Shown: one piece after another, positions 36,001-42,000 of the stretch | Layout of the letters: the number at the start of each line of letters is the position of its first letter | How positions within the stretch are numbered: the stretch's first letter is position 1 | Source of the DNA: Candidatus Woesearchaeota archaeon | GTDB taxonomy: Archaea; Nanobdellota; Nanobdellia; Woesearchaeales; JAFGUC01 | DNA: 64,000 nucleotides | Direction of reading: 5' to 3' | Assembly (NCBI GenBank): GCA_016938695.1 | Contig: JAFGUC010000024.1 | Span: 434,001 to 498,000 of the forward strand | Made by a program: the position numbers

Positions 36001-39000
36001 TTTTTAGCATTTGATTATGCATCAGAAAAATCAAAGGACCCTTCTGTAGATATATTAATTTGCGACGAAATTTTGTGGGCTTTCGAATTAAACTTATTAA
36101 CTCACTCTAGTATTTTAAATATGATTAAAAGTAAACACAAAAACCTTGAATTGATTTTAACAGGTGCAATGTGTCACATAGATATTATGGAACTAGTAGA
36201 TTATGCTACAGAATTCAAGTGCAATAAACATCCTTATTACAGTAATATACCTGCAAGATTAGGTATAGAATACTAACAATTTATTAATTAAAGGTAATTT
36301 CAACAAAAGATGAACTTTGGAGATTTTGCAAATTCAATAAGAGAACCAGACCAGTATTACGTAGATACAAGTAGATTTATTGAATTTAAAGCATTTTTAT
36401 CAAAAAAAGAATTAGCTTTTATTGATTCAGGATTCCAAGAGATTTCAGAACAAGTTTTCTTTGTTAAAGTTCACGCAGGAGTTTGGAAAGAAAATGAGAA
36501 AACTAAAGACTACCATGCAGAATTTTTAATAAGTTTCAAGAAAGAAAAACAAATTTTTAATTTACAAAAAAACATATTCTCTGATTTTATTTTAGAGTCC
36601 ATAACAGAAAACATTGTTGAAAGCTCTGAAAAGTCGGCAATGATTTTTTTGCTTAAAGAATTAGAATCAGGTAGTCTTATAATAAGAGATGGATCATTTG
36701 ATAATCCTATTTTTAATGATGTAATTAGTATTTCAAAGCAAAAAGGTATTCTTATTTTGGCTCTATCAAAATCAACAACAATTCAAGATAATAACTCAAA
36801 TATTACTAAGGTGTTGTATAATAGTGGTTCAGATACAACTTGGTTTTACAATTATGAAAAAAGAGAAACTTACTCTATATTTTTTGTAAGATTGCACAGA
36901 TTGTCAAAATTTTCGTTCAGATTGGACATCCCAAATTTTGAAGGTTTAGATGTAAGACATCCTATAGAAATTTTAGCATCAAATTGTGTTGATCCTGTTT
37001 TTCTAGGTTACCCTTATGGCTTAATTGATGCTGATTCATTTGCACGTGTTTCAAATGAAGATGCAAATTTTTACAAAGTTATTTTAGAAACACAATACAA
37101 TCTGGATACAAATTATAGTGCTCATTCAATTCTTGATAAAATTAGATTTTAATTTAAAATTCCATTCTCTTGTTGAATATTTTTCTAATGCTAAATCTTG
37201 TGCTTCTCTCATTTCTTCTTTAGTTAATTCACCAAAAACCAAATCAAATTTAAGACTGAATTGCTTAATTAAATTTTCTTTTAATTCTTCATAATCAAGA
37301 TTGGTATTAGTAACTCTTTTCTTGACGCCTGCACCCAATAATTCTGCCATTTTGTCAATGTCTGTTTTCAATAGAATTGTTCCATGTTGTAATAATACTC
37401 CATCACGGCGTATTTGTGCATTACCAGATATTTTTTTGTCTTCTGAAATGATATCATTAACAGGAGAATGCTTACAAGAAATACCTAAATCATTTATTGC
37501 ATCAATTATTGGTTGTAAGATTTCTTCATATGTTTTTAATGGTTCATCGTTGTCTAAATTATCTAATTTAATCACAATTGAATATGTTAGTTCGTGGTCA
37601 TGATAAACACATCCGCCACCAGTAATTCTTCTAACAAAATTAATTCCATTTTTTTTAAGTATGTTGATGTCAGTTATATCATGAATATTCTGGAAATATC
37701 CTAAGGATATTGCAGATGGTTTCCACGTATAAAATCTTAATGTATCATCAACATCTCCTCGGATTCTTGCATTTAGTATTGCTTCATCAATTGCCATTTG
37801 CATATAGCAATTATCTTTGATTGTGTCAATTAATCTCATTTTCTAAATACCTCGATGCATTATATGAACTTCTAACAAGTGGACCAGATTCAACATGTGT
37901 AAATCCAAGTGAATGTGAAAACTTTCGTAATTCTTCAAATTCATCAAGTGAATAATATTTTTGAACAGGATAATGGTTTTCACTTGGTGATAAATATTGA
38001 CCAATTGATAAAAAGTCACAATTTACGTTTTTTAGATCAGTAATTGTTTTTTTGATTTCAGTAATTGTCTCTCCAAGTCCAACAATTATTCCTGACTTAG
38101 TTAACATTTGTGGATTGATTTTTTTAATTTCTTTTAAAATATTAAGTGATTGTAAATAGTTAGCTTTTGGTCGTAACTCGCCAAATAATCGTTCAACAGT
38201 TTCAATATTATGTCCGATAATTGCTGGTTTTGAATCAATTATTTTTTTGAGGGCATTAAAATTTCCATTTAAATCTGAAATTAAAACTTCAGTTTTAATG
38301 TTTTCTTTATTTAATTCATTAACACATTTAACGAATTGACTTGCACCACAATCGTCTAGGTCGTCTCGAGTAACACAAGTAATAACTGCATATTTTATTC
38401 CTAAATTCTTAGCAAATTCTTTTATTTTATTGGGTTCATTTATATCAACATCATCAGGAATACCACTGTTGACATTACAATACTTACAATTTCTTGTACA
38501 CGTATTTCCCAAGATGATGAATGTTGCAGTGTTTTTTGAAAAACACTCGTATCTATTAGGACAATTAGCATCAAAGCAAACGGTATTTATTTTTTGTTTT
38601 AATATTTTCTCACGAGTATTAAGAAAATCTCTTCGATTATATTTTTGTATTTGTATGTAATCGGGAATATTCATTTTTTTCGTTGTAATTTTCGTAAAAT
38701 AATTTCGCAAGTAATTTTTACAGGGTCATATAATTGTGAGACTGCAGGATTATATGCCGTTTCAATATCCATGAACTCATCAATTGTGATTCCTTTTTTG
38801 ATTGCAAGAGTAATCCAGTTAATTCTTCCAACAACATTAGAATTTCCAATGATTTGTGCTCCAAGAATTTTTAGATTTTTATCAGATAATACTTTTACAC
38901 TAATATCTTCTTCAGAATTCATGCAACTAGAACAAAGTTTTCCAGTATATTTTCCTTCAATAACATCAATTTTATTTTCTACTAATTGTTTTTTAGTTAA

Positions 39001-42000
39001 GCCACAAGATGCTATATGTAATCCTCCTATTTTCGTACAAGTAGTATTAACACTTTCATCAATTTTCTTCGTGTTACCTAGAATATTTAACGCAACAATC
39101 TTTCCTTGTTTAATAGCATTTGTTGCGAGAAGTGCGTGGTTCTTAATTTGTGCACAATCGCCACACGCAAAAATATATTTATCGTTTGTTCGTAATTCAT
39201 CATCAACAGTTATTCCATTTTCATATTGAATGTTTGCAATCTCAGCAATTTGCTTGTTTTTTATAGAACCGCACGAAACAATTAGTGAATCGTATGGTAT
39301 TTTTGAGTTTTGCAAAATAATTTCTTTTTTATTAACAGATTCAATTTTTGCATCAGTTATTATCTTCAAACCATTATTTGTTAAAGATTCTTCTACTTTT
39401 TTACTAAAATCATCATCTAAAATAGAACTTAAAATTGTTTTATATCCTTCAACAATCGTAACATCTTTTTTTAGTTTTAATAATGATGTTCCTAATTCAA
39501 TTCCAATTAACCCACCACCAATAATTACAAATTGTTTAGCTTTTTTTGTTTCGTTAATTATTTGTGATGCATCAGTTTTAGTGTAGAACTTGTTAAATTT
39601 TATTTCGTTAAGTCCTTTTATATTTGGAACATACGAATTTGAACCCGAAGCAATAACTAAGAAATCATATTTTAATCTATGACCTTTATTTTCCGACATA
39701 AAATAAACTTCTTTTTTATCTCGGTTAATGCTTTCGACGTCAGAATTTAATAATAATTTTATTTTATTATTCTCAAAAAAAGATAGGTCAAAAGTTGTAA
39801 TCTTTTCAAAAGTAGTCTCTTTAGAAACAACATATGGTAACGAGCATGGTGAATACGGTAGTTCACTATTTTTAGACAAAATCGTTATGTCTATCTTTTT
39901 ATCATTTTTTCTTAATTCACTTGCACAGGTTAAACCTGATGCGCCCGAACCAATTATTATTACCTTCATTTTAGTCGTACTAACCACATTGTTGGATTTG
40001 TTTTTAATATCTCAGGATCATCTTCAATAGATTTGTTTACTTCAGTTACAATTCCAGAAACCTTTGATTTTAATTCAAGTGTGCCTTTCATTGCTTCCAT
40101 TGTTAGTATTATTTGTCCACTAGAAATTTTATCTCCGACACCAACATTAAACTCAACAAAAATCACATTTTTCAATGTGTTCTTTGATTTTTCGTCATCA
40201 TTAAAAGAAATTTCGATAGATTCTTCATTTCTAATAATCTGACAATCTTCATATTTTTCAATTTTCATCTTTTATCTTACACCTCAAAAGATTTCCTAAC
40301 CAAACATCAATAATGTTGGTTTAATAATCATAAGTAATCCACAAATAACCATGAATGCACCAGCAACTAATTTTAAAATTCTGCCTTGGTTTTCATTGAT
40401 TCTTTCAGATTTAAATGTAAAAATGAAATTAAATAAGATAGCAAACAGTGGTAAAATATAGATTAATGCATATAAACCAGTCCAGATAAAGTGCCATATG
40501 CTAATGCTTGACCCATATGTGTTAATTAACGATGACATGTATACTGTTGGTAAAATTGCAGTACAACCAAGTTCAACAATATTGACACCAACTGCCAAAA
40601 TTATAGTTCCACCAAATGCAAGAAACATAGACTTCTTTGTATTTTGTTTAAGATATTGAACAATTTTTCTAGCCTTGCTAGTTATTTTGTTTTTTTCATC
40701 ATCAGATATTGTTAGTGATACTCCTTTTTTGAAAAACAAAAAATCCTTTAAATTAATAACTCCAGCAACAGTAATTACAACTCCAAGTATTTTTAAAATA
40801 ATACTTCCATATTTTTCAATAAATATTGAACCAACAAAAATCATTAACATAATGAAAATAAAATACATAATCGCTGAAGTTATAATAAAAACTCCTCCAA
40901 TTCCTGCCATTTCTTTCTTGCTTTTTGTATAAGTTAACAATGACAATAAAATGAAAAGGACAGTAAATGCGCAAGGATTAAATCCATCTGCTAAAGCGAT
41001 TATTCCAGTAAATAAAGGAAATGGTAATTTTTGTGCAAATCCTGCGATTATAGTTTCTGGTGTTGTAAGAATTATTGTAAACAAACTAATAATTATTGTC
41101 GCAACAAGGCCAGAAATCCAATATCTTTTTAGTTGTTCATTTTTATTAAGCTGTTTTTTAAATATTAGAAAACTAAGTAAATATGCAGGTATTGCAAAAA
41201 TAATAATCCATATATTATTTTTTTCAGTAGGTGTTTGTTCTAATGTGCAACTGTCAGTTATTTCATTAATAGCACGTAATATCTGATTACTGTAACCTAT
41301 GTTTGCTTTGTAAACATCGTGGTACGTTAAAGGTCCTTCTCCAAAATCAAATCCAATAAAAACTTCATTGCCAATAAAAGTTCTAGGAACGCCATTAGTA
41401 CTGGTATTATACATTTTAGCAAATTTTTCAAGAAGAGTTCTATTTCCTTCGTGACTTACTTCATAATAATTAATAACAATATTAGGATTATTTTTAATAG
41501 TTTCATCAAAAAATTTCATCTCATCATGACAATGGGGACACGTATCACTATAAAAGAAATTAATATACGTTATAAGAGAATTATTTTTCACATCAACTTC
41601 TTCACATTTATCAGCGAACGAATCTGTTGTACAATTACCAAACAAATCACAATTCTGCATCTCGCTTTCGGTTGTGCATATTGATAATGCTTCAGAATAA
41701 TCCGAACACTGAAGTTTAGCTCCGTAAGTTGTTCCTATTGCAATCAGGAAAACAAACAAAAAAATAATCTTTCTAATATCCATATAAACCATCTTTTTAA
41801 TCATATTGTTACTAAATGTGAAACAACCTATTAATATTTGTTTCACTTTTTGAAATCACTTTAAAAAAAGGTCAAATAAATCCTTTGATAGAGATATTTT
41901 GTTAGTCATGCCTTTTTTTGATTTTTTAATAATTCCCTTTAATTCTAATTGCTTAATCTCTCTAGAAATCTTAACCCGAGACAGTTTTGTTTTATTTACT

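Follow-up and report, generated by a model that had tools for sequence, protein, structure and literature searches.

A conserved operon that joins a GcvH-like lipoyl carrier to a CcdA-like membrane protein in Woesearchaeota and other small-genome microbes, and a possible lipoate-fed thiol-disulfide relay

The known roles of lipoate lie in 2-oxoacid dehydrogenases, glycine cleavage, sulfur oxidation by the sHdr system, and a few cytoplasmic peroxidase lines. Transmembrane relays of the CcdA/DsbD/ScsB type carry electrons outward, from thioredoxin through two membrane cysteines to an exported thioredoxin-like protein (PMC3842002). AhpD is described as a protein reduced by lipoyl groups (PMC8945050). 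In the published literature, we found neither a relay between a lipoyl carrier and a CcdA-type membrane protein nor reduction of lipoamide by flavoproteins of the Nox/CoA-disulfide reductase (CoADR) type.

The window analyzed is a stretch of 64,000 nucleotides (contig JAFGUC010000024.1, positions 434,001 to 498,000) from a Woesearchaeota archaeon whose genome is 99.24% complete with 5.42% contamination; all coordinates are window positions. Six tightly packed genes on the minus strand (37126..42338) encode a regulator, a membrane protein, a carrier, a flavoprotein, LipA, and an LplA-like ligase. The order and coordinates that a first-pass annotation had assigned to the last five genes hold, with gaps of 27, -22, -40, and -14 nt between successive genes. 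The gene for a membrane-anchored wHTH regulator of the DUF7343 type (41856..42338, minus strand; PF24034, E 1e-10) starts the group 9 nt upstream of the membrane protein gene and is likely the first gene of the operon; its homologs occur in 25 of 48 loci of the order.

The membrane protein (40296..41846, minus strand) probably starts at Met15, at position 41804, and its cluster includes a 502-aa member. Sequence, an AF2 model, and fold searches delineate a signal or anchor segment, an exported thioredoxin/glutaredoxin-fold domain (residues ~92 to 198), two extra helices, and a six-helix CcdA-like domain; the topology obeys the positive-inside pattern and, together with hydropathy, matches a six-helix CcdA-type domain. 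The modeled exported domain aligns with thioredoxins (Z 10.7, rmsd 1.5, 82 aligned residues) and carries the active-site motif CPHC (C103 to C106; 41529..41540, minus strand), the commonest in this position among the homologs and also the motif of DsbA. Two cysteines, in helices 1 and 4 of the six-helix domain, reproduce the hallmark of CcdA and DsbD-beta: Cys292 (DGFNPC; 40971..40973, minus strand) and Cys428 (ELGCTAILP; 40563..40565, minus strand). The invariance previously claimed for CxxC and both membrane cysteines extends to all 49 homologs, and among 106 carrier-adjacent domains Cys292 is present in all and the Cys428 motif in 105. Kinship with CcdA, earlier drawn from motifs and an atlas lead (atlas clusters match the protein at 0.90 to 0.92), now has further support. 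CcdA 5VKV ranked first of 48,161 structures against the membrane domain (Z 8.8, rmsd 4.1, 183 aligned residues), with amino-acid transporters tied within 1 Z, and a profile of the domain matched stand-alone proteins at 119 to 133 bits, three of six of which pass the cut-off of Pfam DsbD_TM or DsbD_2. Against this, neither the window protein nor any of 50 aligned homologs matched DsbD_TM or DsbD_2 directly, and the fold match is moderate (Foldseek E 1.1, probability 0.60, TM 0.43/0.46), which also weighs against a relay. The protein is the sole CcdA-like match in this genome.

The carrier (39966..40268, minus strand; PF01597, E 1e-10) is a short GcvH-like protein of 100 residues that lacks the C-terminal helix. 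It is the genome's only PF00364 match and belongs to an eight-member short subclade (support 0.999); the carriers of such operons form one clade (support 0.81). The first-pass annotation read EAMK as a lipoyl-lysine motif. The lysine of this motif, K61 (40086..40088, minus strand), does align with the lipoyl lysine of GcvH, in a beta-turn, and genes for LipA and LplA adjoin, but EAMK itself resembles the biotinyl consensus. Most relatives read E[AS]VKWSGH at this site, and no match to a separate biotin ligase was found in the genome. The carrier is predicted to be lipoylated at K61. The residues of the GcvH aminomethyl pocket, given as E12/H13/E14 and S67/D68 in PMC7733448, are nearly all missing from operon carriers (H13 in 5, E14 in 0, S67 in 1, and D68 in 0 of 49), whereas true GcvH proteins retain them (25, 22, 25, and 24 of 25, respectively). 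Judged by these residues, the operon carrier clade has lost the pocket. The absence of glycine cleavage P protein (PF02347) and dehydrogenase E2 (PF00198) from this genome was confirmed, and GcvT (PF01571) was not found either. With the pocket lost, GcvP and GcvT absent, and a TIGR00527 score of 41 bits against a cut-off of 116, we rejected the carrier as a glycine cleavage H protein; genes of this type annotated as gcvH should not be read as markers of glycine cleavage.

The flavoprotein (38671..39987, minus strand) matches TIGR03385 best but falls below the equivalog cut-offs (243 versus 579 bits; NF046103, 184 versus 600 bits). Its best PDB match is NoxA-3 (6pfz), with the cysteine aligned, and its relatives include the CoA-persulfide reductase 8a56. 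A single redox cysteine, C48 (YSPC), present in 26 of 27 operon homologs, occupies the Cys42/43 position of CoADR and H2O-forming Nox enzymes, and an acidic residue at position 180 (E180 here; E or D in 27 of 27) points to NADH. A dihydrolipoamide dehydrogenase was rejected (TIGR01350, 159 versus 408.8 bits; single cysteine, no CxxxxC). The missing second cysteine of lipoamide dehydrogenases counts against a relay, as does the absence of the flavoprotein near many carriers: it lies within 5 kb in only 34 of 52 loci from the motif scan and 25 of 36 from the order. In one relative, at locus L159, its slot is taken by a true dihydrolipoyl dehydrogenase, which exceeds the TIGR01350 cut-off. LipA (37826..38710, minus strand) scores above the TIGR00510 cut-off and has the motifs CX4CX5C, CX3CX2C, and RSSY. 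The last gene (37126..37839, minus strand) encodes a lipoate-protein ligase catalytic domain of the LplA/LipM type (PF21948, E 9e-46), the genome's only PF03099 match. Its former label, octanoyltransferase, is uncertain: a gene for LplB follows the orthologs in 21 of 36 order loci, which suggests that these are LplAB ligases, but PF10437 and a custom LplB profile detected no LplB in this genome.

Carriers of the operon type were found in 45 of 281 genomes of the order, and the 44 relatives concerned span 27 families; counts for relatives include kin and are not independent. By a strict rule, whose counts are lower bounds, 39 of the 45 loci in the order have the membrane gene immediately upstream of the carrier gene, whereas none of 21 true gcvH loci does. 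A motif scan gave 68 of 75 among loci for which sufficient upstream sequence was available; the order and motif-scan sets overlap. GcvP occurs in 0 of 44 carrier-type relatives and 0 of 21 outside genomes versus 18 of 22 genomes with true GcvH, and E2 occurs in 3 of 44 and 0 of 21, respectively. The view that the link is confined to Woesearchaeota-like labels fell, since records labeled Patescibacteria, Bacilli, and other DPANN also carry the cluster. Most metagenome homologs of the membrane protein lack an adjoining carrier (present in 10 of 80, many contigs being short), an observation that speaks against a relay. Relatives' operons add AhpD, LplB, or an exported thioredoxin; at 16 of 36 order loci the carrier gene is followed by one for AhpD, a protein that has CxxC in 31 of 31 cases. 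In a sister clade of the membrane protein, five loci have the arrangement glutaredoxin-membrane protein-TrxB-like (TrxB is the best family, below cut-off), as if one donor module had been exchanged for another, and at L096 TrxA is encoded directly downstream. The operon is missing from 236 genomes of the order; of these, 19 of the 25 that have true GcvH encode a close stand-alone membrane protein (16 of 22 without three unpublished genomes), but only 2 of the 211 that lack any GcvH do so. Two further CcdA-like clades are not enriched in this way. Together, the near-fixed adjacency, the exclusion from glycine-cleavage genomes, the loss of the GcvH pocket, the AhpD and true dihydrolipoyl dehydrogenase in relatives' operons, and the glutaredoxin and TrxB in the corresponding slots of sister operons give good comparative support to a carrier serving thiol-disulfide chemistry tied to the membrane protein.

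We propose, with a probability of about 0.5, that the operon encodes a transmembrane thiol-disulfide relay in which a lipoylated carrier replaces thioredoxin as the predicted cytoplasmic partner of a CcdA-type protein. LplA would place scavenged lipoate or octanoate on K61, and LipA would insert sulfurs into the bound group. The flavoprotein would pass electrons from NADH to the lipoyl disulfide, probably via a mixed disulfide on C48, as modeled on CoA-disulfide reductases acting with CoA. The dihydrolipoyl arm would reduce the C292-C428 pair from inside, and this pair would reduce the exported CPHC domain and separate exported thioredoxins, which may in turn reduce or reshuffle disulfides of many cysteine-rich surface proteins. 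Where present, AhpD could tap the same arm for peroxide defense. A candidate downstream acceptor, unlinked to the operon, is an exported thioredoxin-like protein with CGAC and a C-terminal anchor (55517..55996, minus strand; PF00462), which resembles both the membrane protein (phmmer E 2.7e-7) and the exported thioredoxin of a relative's operon (28% identity, E 4e-10). The data establish which genes are present and in what order, the conserved residues, the absences, and the co-occurrence; we infer lipoylation, every electron-transfer step, and the direction of flow. Of the earlier proposal that lipoate relays NAD(P)H electrons across the membrane, the carrier's tie to the thiol chemistry of the membrane protein is well supported, whereas direction, direct carrier-membrane contact, and lipoamide reductase activity of a single-cysteine flavoprotein stay predictions. 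Because the potential of lipoamide falls between those of NADH and typical thioredoxin-fold domains, outward flow would be downhill. PMC6067878 gives -0.29 V for lipoamide.

The cluster, conserved in dozens of small-genome microbes, likely represents an undescribed electron chain connecting surface disulfides with NADH, which is in surplus in fermenters and would be the likely source rather than NADPH. The relay would add a cofactor role for lipoate and a donor class for transmembrane thiol relays, and since five to eight genes are kept in about one-sixth of the sampled genomes of the order despite their tiny size, it probably matters for surface biology. All operon parts are expressible in E. 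coli, making direction and donor directly testable.

The same chain might instead run inward, or both ways, a serious rival although we consider it unlikely: a DsbA-like CPHC domain would pass electrons through the membrane cysteines and the lipoyl arm to the flavoprotein and on to NAD+ or O2, giving disulfide formation independent of quinones or holding surface thiols close to equilibrium with the NAD pool. Its attraction is that this genome codes for giant exported proteins whose cysteines number up to 110, yet no match to DsbB, VKOR, MauE, or cytochrome c maturation was found in it, and the operon's membrane protein is its only CcdA-like candidate. Exported-like proteins are biased toward even cysteine numbers (83 even versus 38 odd; cytoplasmic-like, 248 versus 331), as sorted by a crude hydrophobicity classifier with p<0.001 in all four settings tried. 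VKOR or DsbB occurs in 8 of 45 operon genomes versus 18 of 36 controls, and VKOR alone in 5 of 45 versus 73 of the 211 that lack GcvH (p 0.001, with no correction for kinship), a depletion that fits inward flow better than outward. Even so, half of the controls (18 of 36) lack VKOR and DsbB as well, in the sister operons members of this membrane protein family stand beside TrxB and a glutaredoxin, a reducing line, and transfer from a DsbA-like domain to lipoamide would be uphill. AhpD, an acceptor of lipoyl electrons, and the characterized CcdA/DsbD proteins, which export electrons, likewise favor the outward relay (PMC8945050 and PMC3842002). It is unlikely that DPANN archaea and CPR bacteria make or edit surface disulfides by a quinone-free pathway in which a DsbA-like CPHC domain, fused to a CcdA-type membrane domain that works inward or reversibly, delivers electrons to protein-bound lipoate and an NAD-linked flavoprotein, which would stand in for DsbB/VKOR and quinone. 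If true, such a pathway would account for the giant cysteine-rich surface proteins of this genome, and for their even-cysteine bias, without any known oxidase.

Slightly less probable is a co-regulated thiol-stress cluster with two separate lines, the carrier and flavoprotein feeding cytoplasmic AhpD-like peroxide defense, on the pattern of mycobacterial Lpd-DlaT-AhpD, and ordinary thioredoxin feeding the membrane protein. Of the 281 genomes of the order, 258 have TrxB-like genes, among them all 45 with the operon; TrxA, a glutaredoxin, and two TrxB-like genes, on which the first-pass annotation was silent, are encoded in the present genome. With a thioredoxin system in every operon genome, the need for lipoate does not come from a lack of other donors, and the availability of these classical donors argues against the relay. 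The frequency of AhpD, a carrier-AhpD module apart from the membrane gene in three genomes of one family (L147, L152, and L165; f125), and two loci with regulator, membrane protein, and AhpD but no carrier (L105 and L337) also suit two lines. Yet AhpD was not found in this genome and is missing at roughly half of the loci, whereas no neighbor of the carrier is more constant than the membrane gene, the carrier is the only lipoyl client found here, and close membrane proteins track free GcvH even when unlinked. It is improbable that the cargo of the lipoyl arm is sulfur or a thiol-reactive metalloid instead of plain electrons, in persulfide or polysulfide handling (LbpA-like, or as an outside sink for fermentation electrons) or arsenite capture and export. 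In favor of this reading, TusA-YeeE takes the place of the flavoprotein in 10 loci (8 also with DsrE; only one of the 10 has the flavoprotein as well in the fetched stretch), which also counts against the relay; DsrH joins the operon in 4; a CoA-persulfide reductase is among the flavoprotein's relatives; the DNA fetched around 11 of 80 motif loci and 9 of 48 order loci encodes ArsP or ArsM; there are ArsE/F/G genes in the vicinity; and AhpD best matches arsenic-linked NCBIfam families (below cut-off). On the other side, these modules occupy a minority of loci, are absent from this window, and may, for sulfur, simply feed LipA; the carriers lack the two conserved cysteines described for LbpA; and hdr-like genes are absent from the recurring neighbor clusters.

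The relay that we favor can be set beside five described systems. The carrier shares with GcvH the fold and the lipoyl lysine but differs in the lost aminomethyl pocket, the C-terminal helix missing from this copy, and the absence of P and T proteins. LbpA of sHdr (PMC6067878) is likewise a carrier of GcvH fold that works apart from glycine cleavage and has lipoylation genes of its own, and TusA/DsrE occur in some of our loci; unlike LbpA, the carriers have no terminal cysteine pair (of 49, 33 are free of cysteine and 13 contain a single one), canonical LipA takes the place of LipS1/S2, and the recurring neighbors include no hdr-like genes. The GcvH-L/LplA2/SirTM operon of Staphylococcus aureus (PMC12440151) also combines an orphan GcvH-like carrier with its own ligase and is tied to oxidative stress, but GcvH-L stores lipoate for delivery to E2 subunits, and the present genome has no E2; that operon was rejected as a match, with no sirtuin or macrodomain in the scanned window genes (35761-44998) or the recurring neighbors. 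The mycobacterial chain NADH-Lpd-DlaT(SucB)-AhpD-AhpC and lipoyl-reduced Ohr/OsmC (PMC8945050) use NADH-fed, protein-bound lipoate as a thiol reductant, and relatives share AhpD in many operons and a true Lpd in one. The Lpd-DlaT-AhpD-AhpC chain itself was rejected for this genome, which lacks E2 and AhpD; it borrows a dehydrogenase E2 and stays cytoplasmic, whereas the operon has a dedicated free H-type carrier, usually a CoADR/Nox-type reductase, and a constant membrane partner. Finally, the locus resembles CcdA/DsbD/ScsB relays (5VKV; PMC3842002) in the cysteines of helices 1 and 4, topology, a top-ranked though moderate fold match, and exported thioredoxin-fold partner, although its subfamily (DGFNPC and ExxCTxxxP) escapes the Pfam DsbD models and this genome lacks cytochrome c maturation. 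The described relays draw on thioredoxins that receive electrons from NADPH or ferredoxin, whereas the genes linked to the membrane protein here encode a lipoyl carrier, the enzymes that mature it, and a flavoprotein of the NADH type.

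The five-gene set proposed by the first-pass annotation was confirmed on the minus strand of the window (41846 to 37126), with gene ends overlapping or nearly abutting. A gene encoding a DUF7343 membrane-anchored regulator is located 9 nt upstream of the membrane-protein gene. The host genome (G000; 1.5 Mb, 99.24% complete, 5.42% contaminated, with the window on contig C70) contained no match to GcvP or to the E2 core, bearing out the absence claimed by that annotation, and none to GcvT. The carrier is the sole biotin/lipoyl domain of G000, and the ligase is its sole member of the BPL/LplA/LipB family. 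TrxA, a glutaredoxin, and two TrxB-like genes are present; a search of G000 for AhpD found none. A scan for sigma-70 sites revealed 27 sites versus 35.8 expected, the bacterial-type model being uninformative for an archaeal host.

The surroundings of the operon include, on the plus strand (35761-37152), a corrinoid adenosyltransferase gene (PF02572) and a weak NurA-like gene, both converging on the operon, the NurA-like ORF overlapping the end of the ligase gene by 27 nt. The same strand encodes a 3,915-residue exported protein containing 63 cysteines (23274-35021), and G000 has about a dozen giant exported proteins of this cysteine-rich kind in total (others at C20:159404-166027, C20:189138-198266, and C7:129503-138529). 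Judging in part by sequence features, the genes clustered at C70:73473-77366 resemble those for rubrerythrin, glutaredoxin, TrxB, and desulfoferrodoxin, which we take to be an anaerobe-type oxidative stress set. Small contigs C81 and C71 carry bacterial-looking genes, as judged by eye, and may belong to the 5.4% contamination; the only PF00578 peroxidase-like match above the cut-off in G000 is located on C71.

In the membrane protein, an N-terminal anchor is followed by an acidic domain of thioredoxin fold bearing a CPHC motif, by two linker helices, and by a six-helix domain whose helices 1 and 4 hold C292 and C428, respectively. The CPHC domain matched thioredoxins in fold (Z 10.7, rmsd 1.5, 82 aligned residues), and the alternation of basic loops fits an outward-facing location of this domain and of both ends of the six-helix domain. 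The best named homologs carry Woesearchaeota labels. Three partial lines of evidence sustain the previously proposed likeness to CcdA. First, a profile of the membrane domain scored stand-alone proteins of 228 to 265 residues at 119 to 133 bits; of six such proteins, three exceeded the DsbD_TM or DsbD_2 cut-offs and all matched SfLAP. Second, since full-length fold searches returned thioredoxins only, the membrane domain was folded separately (predicted model, pTM 0.80), and CcdA (5VKV) ranked first among 48,161 chains (Z 8.8, rmsd 4.1, 183 aligned), with transporters within 1 Z; in a Foldseek search, CcdA had the top probability in the list (0.60), yet with an E value of 1.1. Third, atlas clusters bearing DsbD_TM were recovered at 0.90 to 0.92. 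Direct matches did not follow: the protein was recognized by neither Pfam nor NCBIfam, 0/50 aligned members matched the DsbD models, and a PDB profile search with the alignment of its homologs gave thioredoxin-fold matches only, among the best 60 listed. The protein is thus best termed CcdA-like, membership in the CcdA family falling short of proof.

Strong matches to the GcvH family (E < 1e-8) in 281 genomes of the order split into two groups, a true, glycine-cleavage-type GcvH in 25 genomes and a divergent carrier in 45, including G000. The operon carriers form a single clade separate from true GcvH (support 0.81), the 100-residue carrier of the window belonging to an 8-member subclade. Residues H13, E14, S67, and D68 hold the aminomethyl intermediate in GcvH, according to the available portion of PMC7733448. 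They are present in 25, 22, 25, and 24 of the 25 true GcvH proteins, respectively, versus 5, 0, 1, and 0 of 49 operon carriers. GcvP was detected in 0/44 relatives with the carrier versus 18/22 of the true-GcvH genomes examined (three unpublished ones excluded), and E2 was detected in 3/44 carrier relatives.

Forty-eight loci fetched from these 44 relatives revealed a recurring gene order: regulator, membrane protein, carrier, then AhpD or an exported lipoprotein thioredoxin, flavoprotein, LipA, LplA, and LplB. The membrane gene was immediately upstream of the carrier gene in 39 of the 45 loci with enough DNA versus 0 of 21 true gcvH loci. Downstream of the carrier (36 loci), we found LplA (26), the flavoprotein (25), LipA (21), LplB (21), AhpD (16), and the exported thioredoxin (12). 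The KWSGH motif of the carrier gave 91 matches in 185,579 species genomes, a set that overlaps the order set and is blind to short EAMKG-type carriers; every match was a carrier gene. Flanks were available for 80 of these, and the membrane gene was upstream in 68 of the 75 having upstream DNA. Record titles included Patescibacteria-type (5 loci), Bacilli/Mollicutes (4), Altiarchaeota, Undinarchaeota, Pacearchaeota, Micrarchaeota, and Aenigmatarchaeota; certain further labels appear automatic, and doubtful for genomes of 0.7 to 1.0 Mb. Neither GcvP nor E2 was found in 21 outside genomes of unstated completeness. A phylum-wide sample (n = 301) gave 38 carrier matches, all except one from the same order, and a word-index search with the carrier returned only itself. 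In a metagenome scan, the carrier was beside the membrane protein in only 10/80 loci, indicating that members of the membrane family also serve in settings that lack a linked carrier.

Some genomes have two carrier copies (G235, C22 and C38; G019, C7 and C4; G154, C31 and C42), G235 and G019 combining the long KWSGH type with the short type. A TusA-YeeE(-DsrE, -DsrH) module lies within the lipoyl operon at L154, L230, L233, L245, L255, L256, L257, L262, L289, and L291, mostly where the flavoprotein was not seen; it may supply sulfur to LipA or alter the role of the carrier. Arsenic genes (ArsP, ArsM, ArsE/F/G) and the sulfur genes (TusA, YeeE, DsrE, DsrH) occur in a minority of loci. A DUF169 (COG2043) gene is in or beside the operon at 11 loci (10 distinct sequences; L144, L245, L247, L259, L260, L262, L274, L281, L287, and L308). 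Two recurring exported lipoprotein-like families without a Pfam match, one of ~200 residues (CPTM motif; found at 10 order loci; L148:4324-4935) and one of ~150 residues (CTSGCGG motif; found at 4 order loci; L151:3820-4290), are candidate relay substrates.

The flavoprotein, a CoADR/Nox-type enzyme, scored under every equivalog cut-off. Its operon homologs retain C48 in 26/27 and an acidic residue at position 180 in 27/27. An acidic residue at such a position confers a preference for NADH, suggesting NADH as the donor. The second active-site cysteine is missing, implying that lipoamide reduction would have to proceed via a mixed disulfide. At one locus (L159), a true dihydrolipoyl dehydrogenase occupies the slot of the flavoprotein.

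Two natural comparisons were available. In a sister clade of the membrane protein, five loci (L359, L360, L361, L363, and L370) have a YruB-like glutaredoxin gene before and a TrxB-like gene after the gene for the thioredoxin plus CcdA-like membrane protein, and TrxA lies immediately behind it in L096. The positions of this classical donor pair are taken by the carrier and the flavoprotein in the lipoyl operon. ArsR and ArsE/F/M are frequently close to the sister operons. Among the 236 operon-less genomes of the order, close stand-alone membrane proteins (profile score of at least 250 bits, or the E value in the case of the truncated G264 copy and the G131 copy) were present in 19/25 genomes with true GcvH (16/22 excluding unpublished G131, G207, and G209) versus 2/211 without, a contrast whose significance is overstated because the true-GcvH genomes are larger and akin and because matches weaker than ~1e-30 are only partly covered. 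Two further CcdA-like clades showed no enrichment with true GcvH. Stand-alone CcdA-like genes of operon-less genomes are often found no more than 2 kb away from VKOR (G101:C2, G127:C105, G085:C82, G178:C75, G233:C27, G250:C121, and G024:C68), a pairing that represents an alternative redox cluster of the envelope.

Outward electron flow, from NADH through the flavoprotein, lipoyl arm, and membrane cysteines to the exported CPHC domain, is favored on the basis of redox potentials, the known behavior of CcdA, AhpD, and the TrxB sister operons. PMC6067878 gives -0.29 V for lipoamide, PMC3842002 describes CcdA-family proteins as moving electrons outward, and PMC8945050 describes AhpD as a protein reduced by lipoyl groups. 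Flow that is inward or reversible competes seriously with this reading, and inward flow, if true, would represent a new kind of disulfide-forming pathway. A bias toward even cysteine counts is a criterion used in the literature, and such counts were found in 83/121 exported-like versus 248/579 cytoplasmic-like proteins of G000 according to a crude classifier. The cysteine count of exported proteins reaches 110 in G000, and DsbB, VKOR, and MauE were not found in this genome. VKOR or DsbB was present in 8/45 operon genomes versus 18/36 controls, although half of the controls likewise lack both. The unpublished G273 is included in the VKOR count, and G111, G182, G205, G244, and G273 enter the denominators; MauE matches across the order, mostly partial and DoxX-like, were kept out of the counts.

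In an alternative to the favored outward relay, the membrane protein would be fed by thioredoxin and the carrier would serve AhpD only: TrxB is present in 45/45 operon genomes, although G000 has no AhpD. The near universality of TrxB rules out lipoate as a replacement for a missing thioredoxin system, and the lack of PF01578 in G000 rules out cytochrome c maturation as the purpose of the relay. A biotin carrier is dismissed because neither a biotin ligase nor a second biotin/lipoyl domain was found in G000 and LipA and LplA adjoin, as is a glycine-cleavage remnant because GcvP and GcvT are missing from G000, GcvP is missing from the relatives, and the aminomethyl residues are lost.

A full-text literature search found no description of the cluster, which subscription journals or supplements could contain, such as the S5 table of PMC10332631 on neighbors of lipoate genes; the available text of that paper does not mention CcdA, thioredoxin, or Woesearchaeota. 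The operon parts are known families, and their wiring appears undescribed. Unlike LbpA, which has a cysteine pair according to the available text of PMC6067878, the operon carriers have no such pair. We class the operon as a predicted CcdA/DsbD relay variant that has a lipoyl partner.
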